The notes beneath the pieces are model-generated. The model was not told the origin of the DNA. It ran no database searches and saw only the letters and a program-made list of their open reading frames with translations. From positions 51,462 to 115,461 of IMG/VR virus record IMGVR_UViG_3300045988_105372: a DNA stretch of 64,000 nt; one strand, 5' to 3'. Made by a program: the position numbers and the translations under genes. Positions 470 to 64,000 of the stretch are shown here, in pieces. Each line of letters opens with the position of its first letter. Within the stretch, counting starts at the first letter, position 1. The DNA comes from a virus.

Positions 470-1813
470 TTATTTCAAAATTAAATTTTTTGTTTCATCT
501 AAAAAAGAGAGTGTATCTATTATTTTAGAATTAGAATAATTATAAGGAATTTCTATCAATTCTAATTTTCCTGGATGTTTACTACATATTTTTCTTAATA
601 AATTATCTCTTCTAATTTGTTTTTGAAAATCTTCTTGACTATTATGAAAAAATGGGATAAATTCATAATGTTGCTTTCCATTATATTCTATTATATAAAT
701 ACAATCATTATGTTTCACTATGAAATCTACTATAATTTTATTAGAATTACGTGCTATTTCCTTAGTCTTTATCTCATATTGAAATTTATATTTACAATGA
801 TATTTGTTTAATAAACTTTTTATAAATAATTCTCCTTTACTAGGCTCTATTTGTTCTCTAGCACATTCAGGGCATTTACACCCCTTTAAATGATTGCCTG
901 GTAATTGCTCAAATTTACCATGCTTTGGGCAAATAATAGTAATTGGAGTTTTATAATTTATATAATTAACTTCGCTATAATCATATTTCCAACCATGAAC
1001 TTCTCTAGCTTTTCTTATAAAATCTTCTTTAGTTAAAGTATAAGATTCTATAGCACAATCTGGACAATATCCATGATGGTATATTAAAGTTGATGCTAAT
1101 ATATTAAAATCTCCATGTTTTGGACAAGTTAAAATTACTGAATTAGTTATTCCAGTATAAACAGTTTTATTTGTAGTATATTCGGGATGAATTTTCTCAC
1201 ATTCTTTAATAAATTCATCTTGAGTAAATCTGAAAGTATTAGTACATTTAGGACATCCATTTTTACAATTTAAATGCTGGTAAGGTAACTACCAAAATTC
1301 TCCATGTTCAGGGCATATAATACAAACTTTTTCTCTACTACCTTTAAAATCTACTTTTGAATAATCAAATTTATAATTATACTTTTCATTAGCAGCTTTT
1401 ACAAAATCCTCTTTGGATCTAATTACTTTAAAATCTTTACTTTTTCCTCGGCATTCCTTACAAGCACATTGTCCTTTTAAATGATTACTAACTGTTTGCC
1501 AAAATTCTCCATGTTCAGGGCATATGATACATACTTTGTTATTAGTGCCCGTATAGACTACTTTGGAATAATCATATTTATTATTCCAAATTTTATTTGC
1601 TTTTCGTATAAAGGTATCTAAATCAAATTTTTTACCTGAACAAATAGCACAACCTCGTCCCTATAAATGTGAATTTGCTTCTTGCACAAACACTCCATGA
1701 ATAGGACATATTATCTTAACTTTATCTTTTGATCTAGAAACTTCTACTAGGGAATAATCATACTTATTTCCATGAATTTCTTGAGCTTTTTTAATAAAAT
1801 ATTCTTTATTCAT
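470..1813 (-). CDS. multi zinc-ribbon protein (5 repeats of YDYSxV...K(V/I)xIICPxHGxFxQ...HLxGxxCxxC) with C-terminal PD-(D/E)xK-like (DUF559/Vsr-like, D...EYNGK) domain; two in-frame TAG codons at 1661-1663 and 1289-1291
   Basis: manual translation: open from ATG 1811-1813 to TAA 470-472 except 2 TAGs falling at conserved repeat positions (HL[TAG]G, EFW[TAG]); track only lists the 82-aa C-terminal fragment 470..718. Confidence 0.6.
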
Positions 1814-1873
1814 CTGTATTATGATTTAGTTAAGATGACTATATATAGATTTGTACAAGAAGCAAATAAATTT

Positions 1874-9331: not shown

Positions 9332-10342
9332 TTACTTTTTGACATAGTTACTTAATTTTTTTATATAATACTTTATAAATTTTAAAGTATTCTGTCGACC
9401 ATATTTTTTATAAAAATCACTTATATCTTTTACTTTGAATTTATGAGGTATAAAGAAATAAAGTAATTCTGGATGATTTCTTCTTATCTTAGCCATATTA
9501 AACATTCCAGGTCTATCATTATCATAAAAAGTTACTATATAAGTAAATCTTTCTTTTAGATCATTTAACATATTTTCAGACAACCATTGTGTTTCACTAT
9601 TTGGAGCACAGGCTGTTACACCTAAACCTCTTAAACACATAGTATCCTTCATACTTTTAGTTATAACTAATAAAGTACCTTTTTTAGGTAACTGACTATA
9701 ACCCTGAACCTTTTTAGAGGGCCAATTTGTTAGAAATCTATATTCTTTACGTTTAGGATAATAAATTCTCCACAATTCTTTACCTTGCATTGTTCCTCCA
9801 TAATATCCGAAGATAAAGTTATCTTTGGTCTTTATAGTTTGAATATTACCATTTAAAAATACAGTACGACAAGAATATACTTTATATTTATTTAGTAATT
9901 CTAAAGAAACTCCTTGTTTACCCCACCATTTTAATTCATCTTCTGAGAAATCTTTTATTTCTACTCGTATATCTGCTGGCTCATTTGTTTTAACAAAAGA
10001 AGTGCTTGATTGTATTACAGAATGATAATTATTTTGTCCTTTTAATAAGCCAAAATCTTTAGCTATAATATCTAATGCTTGATGGTATTTACAAGCATAT
10101 TTAGTCATAACTACAGATATAAAGTTTCCATAAAAGCTCCCATTAAAATCATGGAATATAAGTTCTCCTTTAGAGTTACGAAAAAAGGAAGCCGTAGGAT
10201 TTTTATCTTTACGTAAAGGATTACAAATTAATTTTTTTGAAACTTTTACGCCAAGATAATACTCCATATAGGCTTCCTCTGTGTTATATTTAAGTAAGTA
10301 GTCCTTAGTAATATCTGGTTTATAAGAAAAATCTAATTCCAT
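9332..10342 (-). CDS. DNA primase (Toprim domain) (336 aa)
   Basis: LLVITKSMKDTMCL and FYDNDRPG resemble Toprim E and DxD motifs of DnaG-type primases. Confidence 0.55.
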   Translation of the reverse strand: MELDFSYKPDITKDYLLKYNTEEAYMEYYLGVKVSKKLICNPLRKDKNPTASFFRNSKGELIFHDFNGSFYGNFISVVMTKYACKYHQALDIIAKDFGLLKGQNNYHSVIQSSTSFVKTNEPADIRVEIKDFSEDELKWWGKQGVSLELLNKYKVYSCRTVFLNGNIQTIKTKDNFIFGYYGGTMQGKELWRIYYPKRKEYRFLTNWPSKKVQGYSQLPKKGTLLVITKSMKDTMCLRGLGVTACAPNSETQWLSENMLNDLKERFTYIVTFYDNDRPGMFNMAKIRRNHPELLYFFIPHKFKVKDISDFYKKYGRQNTLKFIKYYIKKLSNYVKK

Positions 10343-10365
10343 AAAAACTACTTACTTTATAATTA

Positions 10366-34150: not shown

Positions 34151-34182
34151 AAAAACAAATAATAAAAACAGTTCTATGAACT

Positions 34183-34300
34183 AGTGGAGCATTGGAGAGT
34201 CGAACTCCAGTCTTGCATATTTGCATCAAAACGTTCTTACAGCATAGGTTTTAAAGACTATCCTTGTCTGTTAGGGTTGACAAGATTAGCATTGCCAACT
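34183..34300 (-). ncRNA. tRNA-like element: perfect T-arm TGGAG-TTCGACT-CTCCA and 3' acceptor-like ATGCTCCA but no canonical D/anticodon arms
   Basis: manual inspection; lies in 650-nt non-coding region. Confidence 0.25.
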
Positions 34301-34646
34301 TCCACCACTCTGTTCCTAAAGTATACAGAGAACTAATAAAGAAATAAAAGAATAATGCACCTTTCCGTTCCCAAGCAAGTGCTGCTCGGTTTCTTAGGCT
34401 GCAATAGCGTAAGAAACAGGAGTCATATTGATAACTCTAGCGATTATTGTTTTGTTGTCTCTCCAACTGTCTTGCTGTGTTTCTTATCTCCTATACAATC
34501 AAAACCACGAATGCCCCAATTTAAAAGAGTCCTAAGTTAGAACTCTTTTATAAATTAGTGTCTACCACGTAAATAATTGTAATTATTATACCAATCATCT
34601 GGATCTATTCTATCTTCATTATCCATAATTTAAAACTTAATTAATG

Positions 34647-36555: not shown

Positions 36556-36855
36556 CTATAATTTTTTTAATATTTTTACATTCTTAATTAATGGCTCACC
36601 ATCAGTACCAGTTTCATCTAACAAATCACCGGTTACTAGATATTTATTGCCAGTAAAGTATTTTACATTATATATAAAATCATTAAATGCCATCTCATTT
36701 GTTAGAGATGGAAGAACAGGAGAGTATATTCCATTTATGTTTTTATGAGCTTCATAAACAGACACACCCTTTTCTTTACCTATTACTTCATTATTATTGT
36801 TCCATATAGATGAACATTCATCATCTGGAATTTCACCAAATCTATAGAATATCAT
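36556..36855 (-). CDS. hypothetical protein (99 aa)
   Basis: ORF track. Confidence 0.4.
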   Translation of the reverse strand: MIFYRFGEIPDDECSSIWNNNNEVIGKEKGVSVYEAHKNINGIYSPVLPSLTNEMAFNDFIYNVKYFTGNKYLVTGDLLDETGTDGEPLIKNVKILKKL

Positions 36856-37001
36856 TTATTTTTTTAAGTTCTATACTACTAAATGCCAAAAATATCCATC
36901 TACTAGTTGAGATATATCTGGTTCTAAACTTTTTAGGTCTTTGAGAATGGAGTATGTAAATTCTTCTAAGATCTCTAAGTCATTGTCACTGTTATTCATG
37001 T

Positions 37002-45668: not shown

Positions 45669-45797
45669 CTGTTTTTGAGTTTTTGTAAGTCCTCCGACTT
45701 ATTAAAGTTTTCGCACAATTTTGATAAGAGCTCTACTTTCACAAGCAAAACTCTTTTATTTTTAACAACTTATAAATTAAAATAATGATAGAAAAAG

Positions 45798-45869
45798 GAA
45801 ATGCGGACAGATTTGAACTGCCAATCTTCTACTCTACGATAGACGCTCTAGCTATTGAGCTACGCATTT
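45798..45869 (-). tRNA. tRNA-like gene with 4-bp anticodon stem and 8-nt loop UCGUAGAG (canonical acceptor AAATGCG/CGCATTT, D-arm GCTC/GAGC, T-arm GGCAG-TTCAAAT-CTGTC)
   Basis: manual folding. Confidence 0.4.
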
Positions 45870-46013: not shown

Positions 46014-46093
46014 ATGTCGCTTAGACGGGATTCGAACCCGTAAGACCATTCCTGGTCAAGGGATTTTCCTACTACACTTGCTTTTATACAAGC
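46014..46093 (-). tRNA. tRNA-like gene with canonical T-arm ACGGG-TTCGAAT-CCCGT but aberrant D/anticodon region (loop TTGACCA)
   Basis: manual folding. Confidence 0.3.
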
Positions 46094-46096
46094 TAA

Positions 46097-46201
46097 CTTA
46101 AATAAAGGGATTCGAACCCTTAATCCTCAAGAGATATTTAATGACGACTTTAGAGGCGCTTCCGTCAATCTGCTGCCGTATACCAATTCCGCCATATTTA
46201 A
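46097..46201 (-). tRNA. 105-nt tRNA-like gene (acceptor TTAAATA/TATTTAA, T-arm AAGGG-TTCGAAT-CCCTT) with ~30 extra nt in the body (contains CUCUAAAG)
   Basis: manual folding. Confidence 0.3.
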
Positions 46202-46694
46202 GTTATTGTAGTCTGGACTATTTTATTACCTTATCAATTAACTTCGAAGTAAGGAATTAGGTTTTACCTCTCTCAATGAGCGTCTCCTTTTTTACATAAT
46301 GCATTATTATTATAACCTTATTACTAAGGATGAAGTCTAAACCATTCCTTTTAATTAACTTAGGTATCTCCTCTATAGTCTCTACACATTTATGCTGTAA
46401 CACTCCAATTTACATTTAAGATAGATTAGCGTTCTATCACAATTTAGCTCGTCACCACCAAAACCTATGTTACCATAAGTGAGGCTTCTGTCGCAAGTTA
46501 ATTAGATTTCTGAATACTGCTTCTATAATCATTACTCTGCTTCTTACACAGATGCTAACCTTTTTACAATTAGTAATTAACTTGTTTAATTAGGGAGATT
46601 CTACTTCTATTATTTCTAATAGAGCACTCAAATTCACCATTACTGGTGTTCCAAAAGTCCCTCGTGTATCCCAGTTTCACCACTAAGCGATAAA

Positions 46695-48371: not shown

Positions 48372-48478
48372 TAGCCCACATTTCTATAAAGGAGAATAGT
48401 GGTAACACCTACCTATACTAATAAATTTATTAGTCAGGATTTATCCAAACACACTAACAATATATCAAATTAAATTTG

Positions 48479-48561
48479 TACGGTAGAAAGGATTCGAACC
48501 AATGACCTTCTCGAAATGACCTATTATAAAAGAGATGCTCTAACCACTGAGCTACTACCGT
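48479..48561 (-). tRNA. tRNA-like gene (83 nt) with canonical acceptor/D-arm but anticodon stem TCTC/GAGA enclosing 19 nt (contains direct repeat AGGTCATT x2)
   Basis: manual folding; T-arm region ATTGGTTCGAATCCTTT identical to 48992..49072. Confidence 0.4.
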
Positions 48562-48967: not shown

Positions 48968-48991
48968 ATTACTCAATCTTTTTAATGTTAG

Positions 48992-49072
48992 TACGGAGTA
49001 AAGGATTCGAACCAATATAACCTCTCTATGAATTGTGGAAATGAGGTGCTCTAGCCATTAAGCTAACTCCGT
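48992..49072 (-). tRNA. tRNA-like gene (81 nt) with anticodon stem ACCTC/GAGGT enclosing 20 nt; paralog of 48479..48561
   Basis: manual folding. Confidence 0.4.
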
Positions 49073-51408: not shown

Positions 51409-51504
51409 TTTTTTAAACTATTTAATTATTAATAATGTGCCATCACCTTTCTCATTAAGAGTCTGCTACTTTGGATATGTAGGATGTAGGTTTACACTAG
51501 AGCT

Positions 51505-54237: not shown

Positions 54238-54747
54238 TTATCTTACGAATCCTGGAACGGATACGATGAATCCGTCTTTTCTGATACAATCTGGATGACC
54301 TGTAGCCGGAGCTACTACATCTGTTCTGCCTTTCTCTTTTGCTGCTGCTAATACCATTGCTGACACAATATAAATTGTGCCTTCTTCTGGCTCAGGAAGA
54401 TTTTCAATCTCACCGTAGAACACTGTGGAAATACCACAGCAAAAGTTGCTAAATTGGTTCTCAACACGAGCAACTTTACCTGATGGATGGTACTCTGTAC
54501 CATTGTTCAAAGTTATAGTGTGAGGTGTTAAGTTAATAAACTTATTAGGAATAATCTCGAAATTTCTTCTTTGAAGATTATCAAGATCTCCTTCAGTACC
54601 ATCAAGTTCTTTATAGTGGCACTTATACATAAGTACACCGCTCATAGTTGACCAATGACCAGTGATAACACCAGTCACACTGGTATCCTCAGTGCCTAAT
54701 GCAAAGAGGATTACTTTAGTTCCATTTTTTACGATATTCTTTTCCAT
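54238..54747 (-). CDS. hypothetical protein (169 aa)
   Basis: ORF track. Confidence 0.45.
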   Translation of the reverse strand: MEKNIVKNGTKVILFALGTEDTSVTGVITGHWSTMSGVLMYKCHYKELDGTEGDLDNLQRRNFEIIPNKFINLTPHTITLNNGTEYHPSGKVARVENQFSNFCCGISTVFYGEIENLPEPEEGTIYIVSAMVLAAAKEKGRTDVVAPATGHPDCIRKDGFIVSVPGFVR

Positions 54748-55236
54748 ATTGTTAATGTGTTAAATTTATATTCATAGATACCTAATAACGTACAACTGTT
54801 ACTAGGTATTTCGTCCAGCCTCATCAGTATGAATTTTATAGTCTCCTGGTTGACTAAACAATTTCTCTTACTCCTTGTTTAAGGGAAGCCTCTCTTTTAG
54901 CACCGAGGTTATCGCTTTAATAAATAATGTAGAGTCCTTCAACACTTACTATCCCCTCCACTAATTGTCTTTACGCTTTCTTACTTCTAAAGTCTTTTTA
55001 ATACTTTACCAGTAATACTTTCAATGTGTTACGACGTGCTAAATACTGCCTGTACAAACCTATAAAAGGATAAACATCCGTTCTACTATTTAGCTATATA
55101 CTAGGATGATTTTTCAACTTAATTTAAAACATATTAGATAGGAACAGGTTTTACACAATACCCTGTATTACTTTCCGACTGTAGTACGGCAACCTATAGC
55201 TAGATATATCCTAGCCAGATTTTTTAGATTAAACAC

Positions 55237-57145: not shown

Positions 57146-57549
57146 AATCTTTAACTTTTTAAAATGTTTGTTAATTTTTTGTTTGGTTTTTACTCCAAAT
57201 ATGTGGGGGGCTCTAAGGGGCAGTGAACACCCGTGTAAATCACTAAATTTAATTAAAAATTAACTACTTCAATAAAAGCCATTAATGTAACAGTTCCTAA
57301 AAAATAACGGGGGGGAATATATAAAGTAACCTTAAAAATTTTAAAATTTTAAAAATGTAAAATATTTTTCACGTATAAGATAAGAAGAGTATTTTCATAA
57401 CTCCTTGATTATCAGACACTTACAAATTTTTTATGCACTCACAGATTTATTTTATTCATTGGAGGATTCACTTCATTCATTCCTACATTTGTTCTATTCA
57501 TAATTTTTGTGACATAATTTTTGTGAATTTATTTTGAATCATATAAAAA

Positions 57550-58029
57550 ATGAATAAATTAATTTTAATTAAAACAAATGTTAATATGAAACAAATAGAA
57601 TCAATTAAAGTTGGAGTGGGTGGAGAGATATTATCAGCTGAAGTTAAAACTATTAAAACTGTTAGTGCTGAACAATTCTGCCAGATATATTTAAGAGATA
57701 ATGAAGAATTTTATAAGTTATCTAAAGCAGAGTCTAATGTATTAGCTGTTTTATGGTATACTTCTAATTATTATGAAGATAAAGATAGGGCACTTCCAGG
57801 AAATAAGATTTCTTTAGATGAAGAACTTAGAGATACTATTAAAATTAAAACTAACTTAGCTGCTGGAACTATACGTAATACTATTACTTCTTTAGTAAAG
57901 AAAAAGATGTTATTAAAAGATTCTAGATATAAAGCTGTTTACTATTTAAATCCTGAATACTTTTTTAAAAGTAAAATATCTGATAGAACTCAAATTATAA
58001 AAAATATAATTGAGTATAAGTTTATTTAG
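57550..58029 (+). CDS. putative winged-helix DNA-binding / RepL-like replication-regulatory protein (159 aa)
   Basis: first gene of a short plus-strand block; weak resemblance to RepL-type proteins; tentative. Confidence 0.4.
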   Translation: MNKLILIKTNVNMKQIESIKVGVGGEILSAEVKTIKTVSAEQFCQIYLRDNEEFYKLSKAESNVLAVLWYTSNYYEDKDRALPGNKISLDEELRDTIKIKTNLAAGTIRNTITSLVKKKMLLKDSRYKAVYYLNPEYFFKSKISDRTQIIKNIIEYKFI

Positions 58030-58239
58030 TAATTGAATTTTTAAAATTTTAATTTTAATTTCTTAAAATATTAACTTTTACAAAAATTAACTTTTAATAT
58101 TCTCTACCTCGACTATATTACTCGTGTAATCAAAAAGAGATATTAAATGAATAAAGAACAACTAATACAAAGTATTAAAGACCTTCCTGATTAGTATAAT
58201 ATAAATTTATAGGTTATTGATAATGTAATTCATATAACC

Positions 58240-58449
58240 ATGACTAAAAAGGTAGATGAATTTGAAGAATATTGTAGTAAATTAGATGATGAAACATTTA
58301 ACAATGCTTGTCTAATATTTGGAATTATCTCAGATATATCTTTAGAAGATTTTTCTTCTAATTTAGATAATTCTAAATATAAAAAATATAAACAAGAATT
58401 TAAACACATAGTTGATTTTTTAAATGATAGAAACATTACAAAAAATTAA
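58240..58449 (+). CDS. hypothetical protein (69 aa)
   Basis: ORF track; plus-strand block. Confidence 0.35.
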   Translation: MTKKVDEFEEYCSKLDDETFNNACLIFGIISDISLEDFSSNLDNSKYKKYKQEFKHIVDFLNDRNITKN

Positions 58450-58636
58450 TAAGATAGTTCCTAATCTTACAGTATCTCAATTAATAGAACTAGTAAATAT
58501 TATTAATGGACCTAAATTAACTATAGACAATATGGTTTTAAAAGATATACCACATAATGGGTTTATTACAGTAGACACTAATAGTATTAAAACTACTTCT
58601 ACTGAAAATCCTTTTAGTGTTAGTAGTTATCTATAA
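58424..58636 (+). CDS. hypothetical protein (70 aa)
   Basis: ORF track. Confidence 0.35.
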   Translation: MIETLQKINKIVPNLTVSQLIELVNIINGPKLTIDNMVLKDIPHNGFITVDTNSIKTTSTENPFSVSSYL

Positions 58637-58940
58637 AGATAATATTCTCCTATGGTGTAATGGTTAGCACAGAAGACTCTTAATATAAGGAGCTTTATAT
58701 GGCGACATATATTGAAACTCTTCCCCTAATAAACCGAAACCTCGAATATAGTAATATATTCTTTGGCGAGGGCTTACTAAATTAACTTATAAAAGTTATA
58801 AATGGCGTAGAGACTATACAGGGAAGCATCTCTAGTAGATGAAGAAATAGTCCAGACTACAACATCCTAATAGGATGGCTTATGTAAAAGTAAGAGTAGT
58901 ATGAAATCTTTTAGTCAGGGTTCGAATCCTTGTGGGAGAA
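58636..58940 (+). tRNA. intron-containing amber suppressor tRNA, tRNA-Sup(CUA), Gln-like D-arm; exons 58636-58670 and 58904-58940
   Basis: exon1 TCTCCTA-TG-GTGT-AATGGTTA-GCAC-A-GAAGA-CUCU; exon2 AAA-TCTTT-TAGT-CAGGG-TTCGAAT-CCTTG-TGGGAGA-A; spliced anticodon loop CUCUAAA. Confidence 0.7.
58671..58903 (+). other. 233-nt group I intron in anticodon loop (between positions 35 and 36) of the suppressor tRNA
   Basis: 5' splice after U pairing to G of internal guide GGAG (P1 CUCU/GGAG), terminal G at 58903, core-like AGAGACTATAC ... AATAGTCCAGACTAC (P7 GACUA/UAGUC). Confidence 0.6.
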
Positions 58941-58941
58941 C

Positions 58942-59412: not shown

Positions 59413-59460
59413 AAAAAAATAGCCGAGGCTTCTCATTTGAGAAACTTCGGCTATTGTGGT
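59413..59460. terminator. bidirectional rho-independent terminator between convergent plus block and minus late block
   Basis: hairpin AGCCGAGG-CTTCTCA-TT-TGAGAAA-CTTCGGCT (59421-59453) flanked by A8 upstream and T-rich downstream. Confidence 0.55.
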
Positions 59461-59465
59461 TTTAA

Positions 59466-60602
59466 TTATTTTATATATAAAAAATTTCCTCCGCCCGTAT
59501 TTTGAGCATCATATTTTAGTAAGTCATCTCTAGTAAATATTTTATCAAAAGTTCTTAATCCTGAATGATAAGTACCATTATCTAAAGTATATAAATCTAC
59601 TGTTTTAACATTGTTTCTAGATTTCATAGCTTCTATCTCATCTCTAATATTATCTATACTTCCGGAAACTAAACGAACTTCTTTACCCGCCTATATAATT
59701 ATTCTTCCTCCAGCTATAGAACCATATTCATCAGTTCTATTATTATTAGCTAAAAAATTTAGTCTGTTATTTACAGATTTACCATTTACTATAGCATTTA
59801 ATATAGGACTTTTTCTAGAACCATTAGAATTACTTTCCATGAATAATACATTATCTTTAGAATCTGTTTTAAAACCAGTAACTGTATTTTTAAATGTTGG
59901 AGAAATCATACTTCCATTAGGAATATCTGAATATTTACCAAAAACAAATTTACCAATAGAATCTATACCTATATAATTCTAATTATTAGGAGATATGCTT
60001 TCTTTAGATTTGAAATTAGAAAAAGCAGTAATAGGAGCTGCTACACTATTTATAGGAGTATAATCACCTCTATTTCTATAACCAAAAGTATGCTTTGTTA
60101 AATTTATGGATTCTGGTATACGATATCTTCTAGAGTTTATTTTAGTAGTATCATTTATAGTATAACTATTTGGAGATATTTCTATTTCTAAATTTTCTCT
60201 CCTCTTATTTTTAGTTACTTTTTTATTAGAAATTTTAATTCTTTTACTAGTATGCTCAGGTTCTGAATCAAAAAATAACTATAGTTTTCTACTTAATCCA
60301 TTTCCTACTAAATTAATCAACTATTTACCACGTTCCCACATTGTTTCTTCTTTCTATTTAGAAGTAGATATTTTTTTAGCAGTGGGCATTTCTTTATATT
60401 TTGCAGGATGGTATACTAAGGTAGATGTTGGTTTAGTAGGATCTACTCCTTTAGCCTAAACCTATGGAAATATTATACTATTAGCTTTATCAGAATTAAT
60501 TTTAAAAGGGACTTTATTTGATTTTCTTCTACCATACAACTACCCATCTTCATACCAATAATCATATATTGAATCATTGTTAGTAATTACCTATACAGCC
60601 AT
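59466..60602 (-). CDS. late-region protein (378 aa) with 10 in-frame TAG codons; function unknown (virion-type gene block)
   Basis: manual translation: frame open for 379 codons with no TAA/TGA in ~72% AT DNA; ends ...NTGGGNFLYIK-TAA. Confidence 0.5.
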
Positions 60603-61723
60603 GGTGTTCTTACTATTACTGGAGTTCCTAACTTATCTAATATTTTTAATCCTAATACAGCTTTACTGTCTAAATCATATGAACTCCATTTCTACTTATA
60701 TTCATCAGGATTAAACTTCCAAATATCTTGTGCTCTATATACTTTCTTACCATTAGATGTTCCTTCCTAAACTAAATGTCCAGCAGCATCAACTCCATTA
60801 TCTCCAAAGTCTAGATTATTATTAGCACCTTTCCAAGGAGTTTTATTAGTTATATTAGAAGCTTTCTACATAGATTTCTTAGTAAAGAAATCTAAAGTTT
60901 CAGTATTTTCATATACAGGAATATCTTTATATGGATATATCTTTCTTATATAATTCTCATGTGGACCATAATCTACATTTATTTTCTTTACTCCATAAGA
61001 AGGATTTATAGTTTTATTATATAAATAAGCATCAATCATATCATTACCTTTAGCTGCTTTCTAAAATCCAGTATATGCTTCAGGAGCATAGGTATTGTAA
61101 CCTACACCAGTTGATATATAAGACAATACTCCAGCATGCTTTTTAGGACTTGCCTTATGCATATTATATACTATGTCTTCTATAGGATTCGCATTATTAG
61201 AAGTTCTCATAGCTACTTCTACTCCACGTTTTAAAGGAGCTTTTACAGCATATCCTATTGCAGGAAGCATTACTAAATAATTACTAGCTTTAGTTGGATT
61301 CTTAGATATATCTAAAGCACCTTTAGTATAATCATATACTGCCTAAGCGGCTGGAGCTAAAGCATAACCTATTCCTGAATTAACTAATGCTTTAATAGGA
61401 CTAGTATTATTATTCCAACTATCTACTTCTCTAGCATAAGCTCCTTTTATAGGATGGGTTCTATTCTTATTACTATAATTATATAATTTAGAATGAGTAT
61501 GTCCTACCTATTTTATAGTCCCTCTATTATCTACAAATACATCTTGTACCCCATTTAAAGTTCTAACGGGAATAACTCTCTACTAATATTTAGCACCAAG
61601 ATATGAAGATTTAAATCTAGGATGATTTAGTCTATTATAATATTCCATATCTATAGCCATCTATTTATTCCGAGTATTATTATTTACTCCTTTATTTTGT
61701 TTACTCTCATCTACTATTGGCAT
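60587..61723 (-). CDS. late-region protein (378 aa) with 9 in-frame TAG codons; contains VGHTHS patch
   Basis: manual translation from ATG 61721-61723 to TAA 60587-60589; track fragment 61061..61270 is an internal piece. Confidence 0.5.
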
Positions 61724-61937
61724 ATTTATACTTTATTTTTCCATATACTAGTTATACTATCAATTCCTAGTAATCCCATACAACAATATAAAACTGTATC
61801 TATCATATCAGGAGCTTGTATCTAACTAATAGAACAGTATATTAGAATAATTAAACTTACTATCCATCCTAATATTCCACACACTCTTTTACTACTTATT
61901 CCAGTATGTGCTGTTATTAATTTAATTAAAAACTATT

Positions 61938-63308
61938 TCATTTCTAAGAATTATTTAAGAACGGTAAACTCATACCTATAGGTGCTGCTATTCTGAGTGC
62001 ATTAGAATCTAACTCAGGAATAGTTAATCGAGAATCTCGTAATATATTTCCAGTTATTCCTTTAAGAGGTATTCTATTTCTTTTCATATTAAGTGGAATT
62101 AAAAAATCCTCATTTATTTCATACTCAATATTAGGATCATTACCTATTATATTAGAAGCTTTATACTAGTTAAGCTACGTTTTTGGTATATCTATATACT
62201 ATAATTCTATAGAATTGTCAACTCCTTCTTTTATAGCTTTTCTTCGAGTATTAGAAGCATATATTAATGTTTTTCTTGGGTTATCAGTAAACCACATTCC
62301 TGTATATTTAGCTGTTCCATCCGGAGATGGAGTAAATTTACCATTAGTACCAGAAGCTCTATATAATCTTACCATACCCTAATCTAATTTAGGTTTCTAA
62401 AATATTCCTACTTCAATAGGTTCTTTAGTTCCCTTCATAGTAAGTTGTCTAGTTCCATTCTAGATAAATCCAAAGTCTTTACCAAATCTATTTATACCAT
62501 GAATACCTCCTTTAGATATAGAACCCCAAGTAGAGAGATTAGCACCTTCAGGTACTTCATCTGCTACCTTAGCAAATAGCTACATTTTATTACCATAACT
62601 TAGACCATTTCTATCTGTTTTAAAATGAACTGAATAATTATTAGGTTCAATATCCTTTACTAGTTCAAATCTTTGATTAGGCTATTGTTTAAAGAAATAA
62701 GAAGTAGCTTCATTTCCTTCAGCTTTTCCAGTACTCCAAGCCTTTCTAGTAGGTTTATAATAAGATAACTGCATAATAGGATTATCTCCTGTTGTATATT
62801 CTTTAGCAGCTAAGTTATTAGTAATTCCTTGAGATACATTTTTAGTTAAATTTCCAGCAGTTTCATTAAGTAAACTATTTCTTGCCCAATGTGAAACGGC
62901 ATTCTAACCCATTTTAGAAAGAGCTATTTTGCCTAAACTCAATCCTAAATTTCCTGCAGCAGTTCCTACTATAAATTCTCCTACTGGATCAGCTCCTGAC
63001 ATAGCCCCTGCTTGAGGATTAGTACTAGTTTTAGTATTTCCCTACTAATCCTTTACTGTAACTACCTCACTATGAGGCACACTCCTCTTAGCTAAAGCTA
63101 TCCTCTCTTTAATTGGTAGATTATTATATTTAGCTTTTAAATTTTTAGCAACAGGCTATAATCTATTTTTTAAATTAGTAGGATTAAGAATTCCCGTAGA
63201 TTGAGCGTTTCTAGTTATTTCCTAATCCTACTTAGATTGTTGCCACGGTAATCCAGTGGTTTTAAAATTTAATTTACCTGCTTTCTAATATTTAGGTATC
63301 CATTTCAT
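61938..63308 (-). CDS. late-region protein (456 aa) with ~17 in-frame TAG codons
   Basis: manual translation from ATG 63306-63308 (MKWIPKY[TAG]KAGKLNFK...) to TGA 61938-61940. Confidence 0.5.
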
Positions 63309-64000
63309 ATCTCTTTAAATATTTATTCCATAACTATCGATCTCTTTCATCTACAAAATTTAGAAATTCTTGTAATTCATTCAATTGTATATTTATATCT
63401 TTCATTTCTTTAGATATATTTTATATTGATCATAAGGATTATCTATATATCTCTATGTAGGAGTCACTGTAATTTCAGGCAGTACAACTCCGCCTTTATA
63501 AATCATAGTAGTCTAACCATCCTAATTACCATCTGCAGTTCCAAATAATGTAAGATTTGGATTTTGCATTCCGAAATCAGTTAAATAAAATTTGATTCCT
63601 GATTTATTAAATTTGCCCCTAGAAGGGTGTGTAGGATGATTACTTAATTTTACATTATCAAGATAATGTTCTCTAGAATTAGGAGTTAACTAAGACAATA
63701 ACTTATTATTAACGTTATTATAATTTCCATTCCCATATTTTACCTAATTAGGAAATTCCCAAATTATATTAGCTAGAGCTCCTGTAGTAAAACTTCCACC
63801 CTACTATAACTACTATGGAGTAGGCAAAACTTTACCTTTTTGATATTTAGGAACTAATTTAAGCATTTCTAAATTTATTTATATATTTTGCAACATTAGT
63901 GCCATTAGCATCAGCGCCTCCTGCAATACCATACTTATAATAATTTTTAGTCCATTTTGGATTTAACCATGATGCTGCTATAGCTTCTCCAGTAGCTGCT
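63292..64000 (-). CDS. late-region protein, 3' end only (continues beyond window), TAG-containing; stop TAA overlaps next start
   Basis: manual translation ...LQEFLNFVDERDR[TAG]LWNKYLKRYEMDT-TAA. Confidence 0.4.

Follow-up and report, generated by a model that had tools for sequence, protein, structure and literature searches.

Partial reassignment of the amber codon TAG to glutamine (Gln), together with a phage-encoded suppressor tRNA, is established in the Lak megaphages and in several groups of crAss-like phages (PMC6784885, PMC8346664, PMC7886860, PMC12386605). In crAss-like phages of the Zeta group, the reassignment is found in late genes (Yutin et al. 2021, PMC7886860; 2025, PMC12386605), and the same literature reports recoded genomes that yielded no suppressor; the suppressor is reported to be undetected in about 60% of TAG-recoded phages. 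The Lak megaphages of Prevotella, which use genetic code 15 (Devoto et al. 2019, PMC6784885; Crisci et al. 2021, PMC8346664), contain tRNA introns described as 'enigmatic', and tRNAscan-SE was therefore run in eukaryotic mode on these genomes. Lak phages are also reported to carry 'TAA suppressors' universally. Metaproteomic confirmation of such recoding is cited by a 2026 preprint (10.64898/2026.08.21.746148). Here, we analysed a 64,000-nt stretch of viral DNA (positions 51,462 to 115,461 of IMG/VR record IMGVR_UViG_3300045988_105372; referred to as the window), in which four minus-strand open reading frames (ORFs) between 59466 and 63866 contain in-frame TAG codons and lie beside an intron-split gene for a tRNA with the anticodon CUA.

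The locus resembles the Zeta group in several respects. Zeta genomes are 145-192 kb long and the relatives of the window lie on contigs of 164-189 kb. Both have many introns and homing endonucleases (in the window two tRNA introns and an HNH endonuclease, and in a relative an intein-like insertion in a neighbouring gene), tRNA clusters, TAG recoding in part of the genome and a CTA suppressor tRNA, and the primase of the window is nearest to Crassvirales primases. In contrast to the window, no intron in the suppressor is mentioned for Zeta phages (PMC7886860, PMC12386605). With the Lak megaphages the locus shares the reading of TAG as Gln, a CTA suppressor, TAG-free regions of more than 5 kb alongside TAG-rich structural regions, and tRNA genes with introns, one of which holds a tRNA-like element (compare 46016-46689 of the window). 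However, Lak genomes are ~540 kb in size, and the replication proteins of the window point to Crassvirales. The timer model of Borges et al. (bioRxiv 10.1101/2021.08.26.457843) is matched by standard-code, presumably early genes beside recoded genes of probable lysozyme- or amidase-related function, by a recoded homing endonuclease (470-1825 of the window) and by a suppressor tRNA adjoining the recoded cassette. The window departs from that model in that the suppressor is intron-split, lies on the opposite strand in convergent orientation and is flanked by small TAG-bearing genes.

The recoding at this locus is a known phenomenon in a new genome. We found no mention of an intron-split, polymorphic suppressor gene in the papers on recoded phages that could be searched; this gene is a modest extension of the described systems and not a new kind of system. 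Our explanation for the locus as a whole, to which we assign a probability of roughly 0.9, is an operon of a large crAss-like phage of ~165-190 kb, written in genetic code 15 (TAG = Gln), with its suppressor adjoining and the code serving as a translational timer.

A minus-strand operon with in-frame TAG codons

The recoded block consists of the following ORFs:

59466-60602, minus strand: ORF4, 378 aa, 9 in-frame TAG, stop codon TAA
60587-61723, minus strand: ORF3, 378 aa, 9 in-frame TAG, stop codon TAA
61938-63308, minus strand: ORF2, 456 aa, 16 in-frame TAG, stop codon TGA
63402-63866, minus strand: ORF1, 154 aa, 9 in-frame TAG, stop codon TGA

ORF3 and the start of ORF4 overlap by 16 nt. 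The corresponding minus-strand frames stay open for TAA and TGA over 389 codons (59466-60632), 382 codons (60587-61732), 459 codons (61938-63314) and 159 codons (63402-63878). An earlier reading made from the letters alone (the sequence-only reading) had described four long minus-strand frames that lack TAA and TGA and contain TAG. This was confirmed: the four ORFs together hold 43 in-frame TAG codons and no TAA or TGA (0/1364 sense codons), compared to 272 TAA and TGA codons among the 2728 codons of the other two frames (~10%). The fourth frame, given there as 230+ codons, has 159, with TGA and TAA stops above 63878. The frames are TAG-rich as it had said, at counts of 9-16 per ORF instead of 10-17. 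In 300 dinucleotide-preserving shuffles of the DNA, the longest TAA/TGA-free run averaged 117 codons (SD 22, maximum 227), compared to observed runs of 458, 388, 381 and 165 codons. The TAA/TGA-free frames of the block are real and beyond chance.

A 395-codon frame that is open for TAG and TGA was considered as a sign that TAA might be a sense codon. Both strands of the window abound in such frames, no homologue supports the reading, and it was rejected as a composition effect of AT-rich DNA.

The standard-code ORF list over the block contains only the scraps named in the sequence-only reading, of 53-121 aa. These scraps, and the lack of any match for ORF1-4 in Pfam and PHROGs, would suit decayed or non-coding DNA, that is, pseudogenes with chance TAGs. 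Such an origin is contradicted by the difference between in-frame and off-frame TAA/TGA counts, by hundreds of full-length homologues at 30-98% identity, by TAG positions that are conserved and never swapped for TAA or TGA, and by confidently predicted folded domains; moreover, neither frameshifts nor scattered TAA or TGA codons were seen in the ORFs of the relatives. We consider decay to be refuted in practice and its probability negligible. Judged from these comparisons, the four ORFs are real, conserved genes whose expression needs readthrough of the 43 TAGs.

The block is part of a longer unit. In relatives, the operon starts ~3 kb further upstream and includes genes for an SLT transglycosylase and a glycine-rich membrane protein, all with in-frame TAG, and by this comparison the block is the 3' part of a longer operon. 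The operon is a mosaic even among ~96%-identical relatives, in which ORF1 and ORF2 are replaced or extended. In the closest record (MT835539, L001 in our set of loci), ORF2 is absent, ORF1 is replaced, ORF4 carries a 252-nt in-frame deletion and 1.2 kb is inserted between ORF2 and ORF3; the intervals of the window that differ from this record are 59493-59744, 61714-61739 and 61942-63856.

The residue read at TAG

Codon usage in the block is consistent with TAG standing for Gln. TAG occurs 43 times in ORF1-4, CAA 15 times and CAG once, so that CAA and CAG make up 1.17% of codons, or 4.33% once TAG is added. In the 57 ORFs examined between 2 and 57 kb, TAG is found in frame in 0/12,209 codons and Gln codons amount to 2.40%. 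The TAG sites were then followed across 10-13 related loci from IMG/VR and GenBank, at 65-98% protein identity. In these loci the sites are almost always TAG, up to 11 relatives retain them, and TAA or TGA never takes their place. Where the TAG of the window is replaced, CAA/CAG is the largest class (8 of the 24 distinct replacement types), and at sites with TAG in a relative and another codon in the window, that codon is CAA in 3/9 cases.

More distant homologues point in the same direction. A homologue of ORF3 from a standard-code crAss-like phage (P0063), which translates in code 11, aligns in a single frame to residues 82-375 and across five TAG sites. In distant members of the ORF3 family (28-36% identity), Q makes up ~18% of residues in the nine TAG-aligned columns, compared to a background of 4.1%, a ~4-fold enrichment. 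Repeated motifs provide a comparison within the window itself. The N-terminus of ORF2 reads MKWIPKY(TAG)KAGK and that of ORF1 reads MLKLVPKYQKGK, so that the motif M-K-x-[IVL]-P-K-Y-Q has TAG for Gln in ORF2 and a normal Gln codon in ORF1. A second such motif, GEFWQ, is repeated in a gene near the start of the window; its last position is a normal Gln codon in one copy and TAG in another copy:

470-1825, minus strand: HNH homing endonuclease (PHROG 559, DUF723 zinc-ribbon repeats) with 2 in-frame TAG

This endonuclease is a recoded gene within an otherwise TAG-free replication region. The N-terminal motif, in the wider form M-K-x-[IVL]-P-K-Y/L-Q, is common to ORF1 and ORF2 and also to distant ORF3-family members (L018 and L035; P0056, P0070, P0074 and P0079), and within the window it is confined to this operon (61938-63866, minus strand). 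The motif may serve in targeting or processing, for instance to direct the proteins into the virion.

The replacement spectrum is not exclusively Gln. At some TAG sites the relatives have TAT, AAA, GAA or AGA, and this would fit TAG encoding another residue such as Tyr, Lys, Glu or pyrrolysine, as would the label 'Pyl', which ARAGORN attaches to any cta anticodon. Against a residue other than Gln are the rank of CAA/CAG as the largest replacement class, the near absence of CAG and the depletion of CAA in the block, the PKYQ and GEFWQ motifs, and the tRNA-Gln-type body of the tRNA described below (U1-A72; 79% identity to tRNA-Gln(CUG) and ~86% to Gln-annotated crAss-like tRNA(CUA)). We therefore regard another residue as very improbable. 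Because codon usage, site conservation, distant homologues and the PKYQ/GEFWQ motifs agree, the sequence comparisons support a reading of the block TAGs as Gln. The proposal that TAG is a sense codon in this block is upheld by its conserved sites, by CAA/CAG as the leading replacement, by the depletion of Gln codons and by the one-frame alignment to a standard-code protein. Full-length homologues span the TAG sites and TAG takes the share of Gln codons, rather than the readthrough translations lacking homologues and codon-usage continuity.

TAG is nevertheless still used as a stop elsewhere in the window. Genes between 2 and 57 kb had been described as free of internal TAG and as ending in TAA or TGA; the first part holds (0/12,209 codons), and the second does not, as TAG terminates 5/67 ORFs of at least 100 codons in this TAG-free region. 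Therefore, TAG is still a stop there. We considered whether these TAG terminators are specially backed by nearby TAA or TGA codons and rejected this, since the next in-frame TAA or TGA follows at a median of 6 codons after any stop. Termination at TAG in these ORFs, where host RF1 is presumably available and neither an RF2 gene of the phage nor an anti-RF1 gene was seen in the window, would be compatible with TAG being a leaky stop in the block, where deliberately partial suppression would give truncated and full-length products that are both functional. However, with 9-16 TAGs per gene, inefficient readthrough would leave almost no full-length protein, and conserved domains lie downstream of many TAGs, such as residues 142-378 of ORF4, which follow 7 of them. 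We thus judge deliberate leakiness very improbable and retain the assignment of TAG to Gln throughout the operon.

The tRNA(CUA) gene and its intron

The sequence-only reading had placed a suppressor in the same window as the recoded genes. A tRNA(CUA) gene is indeed present, and is visible only once a 223-nt intron is removed:

58646-58680, plus strand: suppressor tRNA(CUA), exon 1, ending in ...GAAGA-CUCU
58681-58903, plus strand: intron of 223 nt, in the anticodon between U35 and A36, ending in G
58904-58941, plus strand: suppressor tRNA(CUA), exon 2, beginning with AAA-UCUUU; the acceptor stem opens with the pair U1-A72

Neither ARAGORN with default settings nor the Rfam tRNA model reported a CUA tRNA in the window. 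With introns allowed, ARAGORN returned a plus-strand split tRNA spanning 58646-58941, with its anticodon misread. Joining ...GAAGACUCU (to 58680) to AAAUCUUU... (from 58904) gives a 73-nt tRNA with the loop CUCUAAA and the anticodon CUA. The spliced sequence has ~86% identity to crAss-like phage tRNAs annotated as tRNA-Gln, aligns without gaps to the tRNAs of cr7_1, cr53_1 and MT836720 (loops CUCUAAA or CUCUAAC), and aligns without gaps to tRNA-Gln(CUG) at 79% identity. By these comparisons, the gene is an intron-split, Gln-type tRNA(CUA) gene located ~0.5 kb from the recoded operon on the opposite strand.

The junction was set by the alleles of related loci (L001 and L006-L017). In seven of these the gene is intronless and joined precisely at the predicted junction, which is decisive for its position, and the intronless allele is called tRNA(cta) by ARAGORN. 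At the same insertion point, five loci carry a 1003-nt insertion and one carries a 219-nt insertion like that of the window. Exact-match scans of IMG/VR recovered 9 contigs with the intronless junction, 4 with the intron and 0 with both; one of the intron-bearing contigs is 180 kb in length. The splice junction, as positioned by the seven intronless alleles, is CUCU/UAAUAUAAGGAG...UAUG/AAA, where the slashes mark the splice sites.

The intron has a group I-like architecture. The end of the 5' exon, CUCU, can pair with GGAG ten bases into the intron to form P1, which places a U.G pair at the splice site; GACUAU/AUAGUC can form P7, and P2, P3, P8 and P9 stems can be drawn by hand. Eight differences separate this intron from its copy in L015; seven are located in loops or junctions and one turns a G-C pair into G.U. 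The 219-223-nt form is ORF-less, and the 1003-nt variant carries a standard-code gene for an HNH endonuclease. A second split tRNA gene was found in the window:

46016-46689, minus strand: split tRNA-Leu(UAA), with a 587-nt intron after U34

This intron has the core motifs of the suppressor intron and is inserted at the classical group I intron site of tRNA-Leu(UAA). In its would-be P9 region, 46097-46201 folds like a tRNA (Rfam tRNA, 33 bits).

Group I introns of the IC3 type occur in the anticodon loops of bacterial tRNAs, such as cyanobacterial tRNA-Leu(UAA) and Azoarcus tRNA-Ile. Like these, the suppressor intron is inserted in the anticodon loop after a U, has a U.G pair in P1 and a terminal G, contains a GAGACU...AGUC P7 core, is polymorphic for presence and absence and has an HNH-bearing variant. 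It differs from them in its host gene, which is an amber suppressor, in its insertion between positions 35 and 36, and in its lack of an Rfam match: a search of the intron against Rfam for a group I model gave no match at E <= 10, which argues against the assignment. We infer that the suppressor intron is group I-like by architecture and may be self-splicing. On the whole, we lean towards the view that the suppressor gene is itself a homing site for mobile introns of group I architecture, with three alleles, and that the change of code depends on splicing.

These elements suggest a possible course of events. Early in infection, host RF1 would terminate translation at the TAGs of the block, and the TAG-free replication and tRNA genes between 2 and 57 kb would be translated normally. 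The phage tRNA(CUA) would then be transcribed and spliced, and the host GlnRS would load it with Gln; from that point ribosomes could read TAG as Gln and the operon proteins would be made. The genetic code would thereby time translation, in line with proposals made for other recoded phages, and the only step specific to this locus would be the removal of the intron from the suppressor precursor. Besides the mixed replacement spectrum described above, three points weigh against this account. The suppressor has recoded genes around it instead of lying in a clean standard-code 'early' unit; the scanned proteins of the window included no RF2 or GlnRS; and the late timing and the role of RF1 are put forward here as suppositions.

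Genomic setting, phage affiliation and consequences

The products of the recoded genes probably breach or lyse the cell envelope. The C-terminal domain of ORF4 (aa 142-378) weakly resembles NAGPA/DUF2233, and in homologues this domain is fused to Amidase_2 or SLT domains. The C-terminal half of ORF3 has a confident predicted structure (predicted local distance difference test score, pLDDT, ~80-90) with no match in the PDB, and the ORF3 family has no Pfam or PHROG match. In a standard-code crAss-like contig, a homologue of ORF3 comes after the large terminase gene and is flanked by the genes for the portal and the major capsid protein. ORF2 has more than 600 close homologues in gut metagenomes and none that tblastn could find among GenBank phages. 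It was considered as a hypervariable target of the diversity-generating retroelement (DGR) type, in view of at least 120 clusters at 92-96% identity, and rejected, as the variation is dispersed with a mean column identity of 95%. Because of the domain fusions of ORF4, the SLT gene upstream in relatives and the position of the ORF3 homologue beside portal and capsid genes, we propose that the operon products are probably virion-associated or lysis proteins with a role in breaching the cell envelope. The label 'late' is plausible for the block on the strength of the domain fusions and the gene neighbourhood.

The recoded operon is separated from the suppressor by a hairpin and part of a small plus-strand cluster that faces it:

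59413-59463, no strand assigned: imperfect 15-bp hairpin with an A run and a T run at its flanks and terminator-like near-hits in Rfam
57547-58032, 58147-58449 and 58424-58636, followed by tRNA(CUA) and two small ORFs up to 59381, plus strand: plus-strand cluster
58147-58449, plus strand: 100-aa ORF 5' of the suppressor, with 2 in-frame TAG

ORF4 ends at 59466, next to the hairpin. The hairpin was missed by a simple terminator scan, and is likely to be a bidirectional terminator that serves both the recoded minus-strand operon and the plus-strand cluster convergent with it. The GC skew reverses between ~57.0 and 59.5 kb, at this cluster. Both TAGs of the 100-aa ORF are kept in 11/11 matches in the loci of relatives.

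The window has a G+C content of 30% and carries almost all of its genes on the minus strand. Its TAG-free region, from 2 to 57 kb, encodes a primase, two helicases of which one is DnaB-like, exonucleases, NAMPT, an AAA ATPase and an SPFH protein, together with at least 14 tRNAs and a tmRNA-like gene. The tmRNA-like gene is located at 34182-34517 (minus strand; Rfam 48.9 bits vs 47), with ARVINMTPVSYAIAA as the tag peptide predicted by ARAGORN. Two paralogous tRNAs at 48478-48561 and 48991-49072 (both minus strand) have anticodon loops of 18-19 nt, corresponding to inserts of 11-12 nt that are too short for group I introns. With introns allowed, ARAGORN reads the tRNA at 48991-49072 as tRNA(UUA), which would be an ochre suppressor in DNA whose main stop codon is TAA. 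A tRNA-like gene at 45797-45869 (minus strand; Rfam tRNA, 49.5 bits) has a 6-nt loop, CGUAGA, which includes UAG, and no normal anticodon can be assigned to it. These three odd tRNAs were considered as sources of a CUA anticodon and rejected, as none can yield CUA. A RAGATH-1 hammerhead ribozyme at 54772-54856 (minus strand; 75 bits, gathering score 56.3) lies just 5' of the ORF at 54238-54759 and may mark where a polycistronic transcript cleaves itself.

Among public records, the nearest to the window are scaffolds from the human gut ('Bacteriophage sp.') that carry no annotation and are ~96% identical. In a tblastn search with the primase (9332-10351), unannotated gut 'Bacteriophage sp.' scaffolds match at 48-99.7% identity; apart from these, the best matches are crAss-like phages at 30-35% identity, and no Lak record is among the matches listed. 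Close homologues of the block proteins sit on the 164-189 kb contigs noted above. An identity as a Lak megaphage was first drawn from megablast and then rejected: of 24 kb queried, only ~0.3 kb matched Lak megaphages, in short stretches of 87% DNA identity, the primase is crAss-like and the contigs of the relatives are of 164-189 kb. Based on the primase and these contigs, the window looks like part of a Zeta-type crAss-like phage and not of a Lak megaphage, with TerL, major capsid protein and portal genes lying outside it. The comparison with crAss-like and Lak phages made in the sequence-only reading was apt, the closer likeness being to Zeta-type crAss-like phages. A small protein gene at 36558-36870 (minus strand) is 87% identical in DNA to Lak-A1, Lak-A2 and Lak-C1 megaphages, and ends in TAG with a TAA seven codons further on. 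To judge by this match, which suggests gene exchange, DNA may have passed between Lak phages and the crAss-like phage of the window.

For annotation, the region needs code 15, without which at least 4 real genes are lost. For the biology of these phages, the locus adds one more genome written in two codes, with TAG-free replication genes beside a TAG-rich, envelope-linked operon. The suppressor is missed by default tRNA finders because the intron splits its anticodon, and intron-aware searches may recover the 'missing' suppressors of many recoded phages. If the suppressor gene is indeed a homing site for such introns, split genes would be one concrete cause of undetected suppressors in many recoded phage genomes, and the switch of code may be subject to an additional control at the level of splicing.

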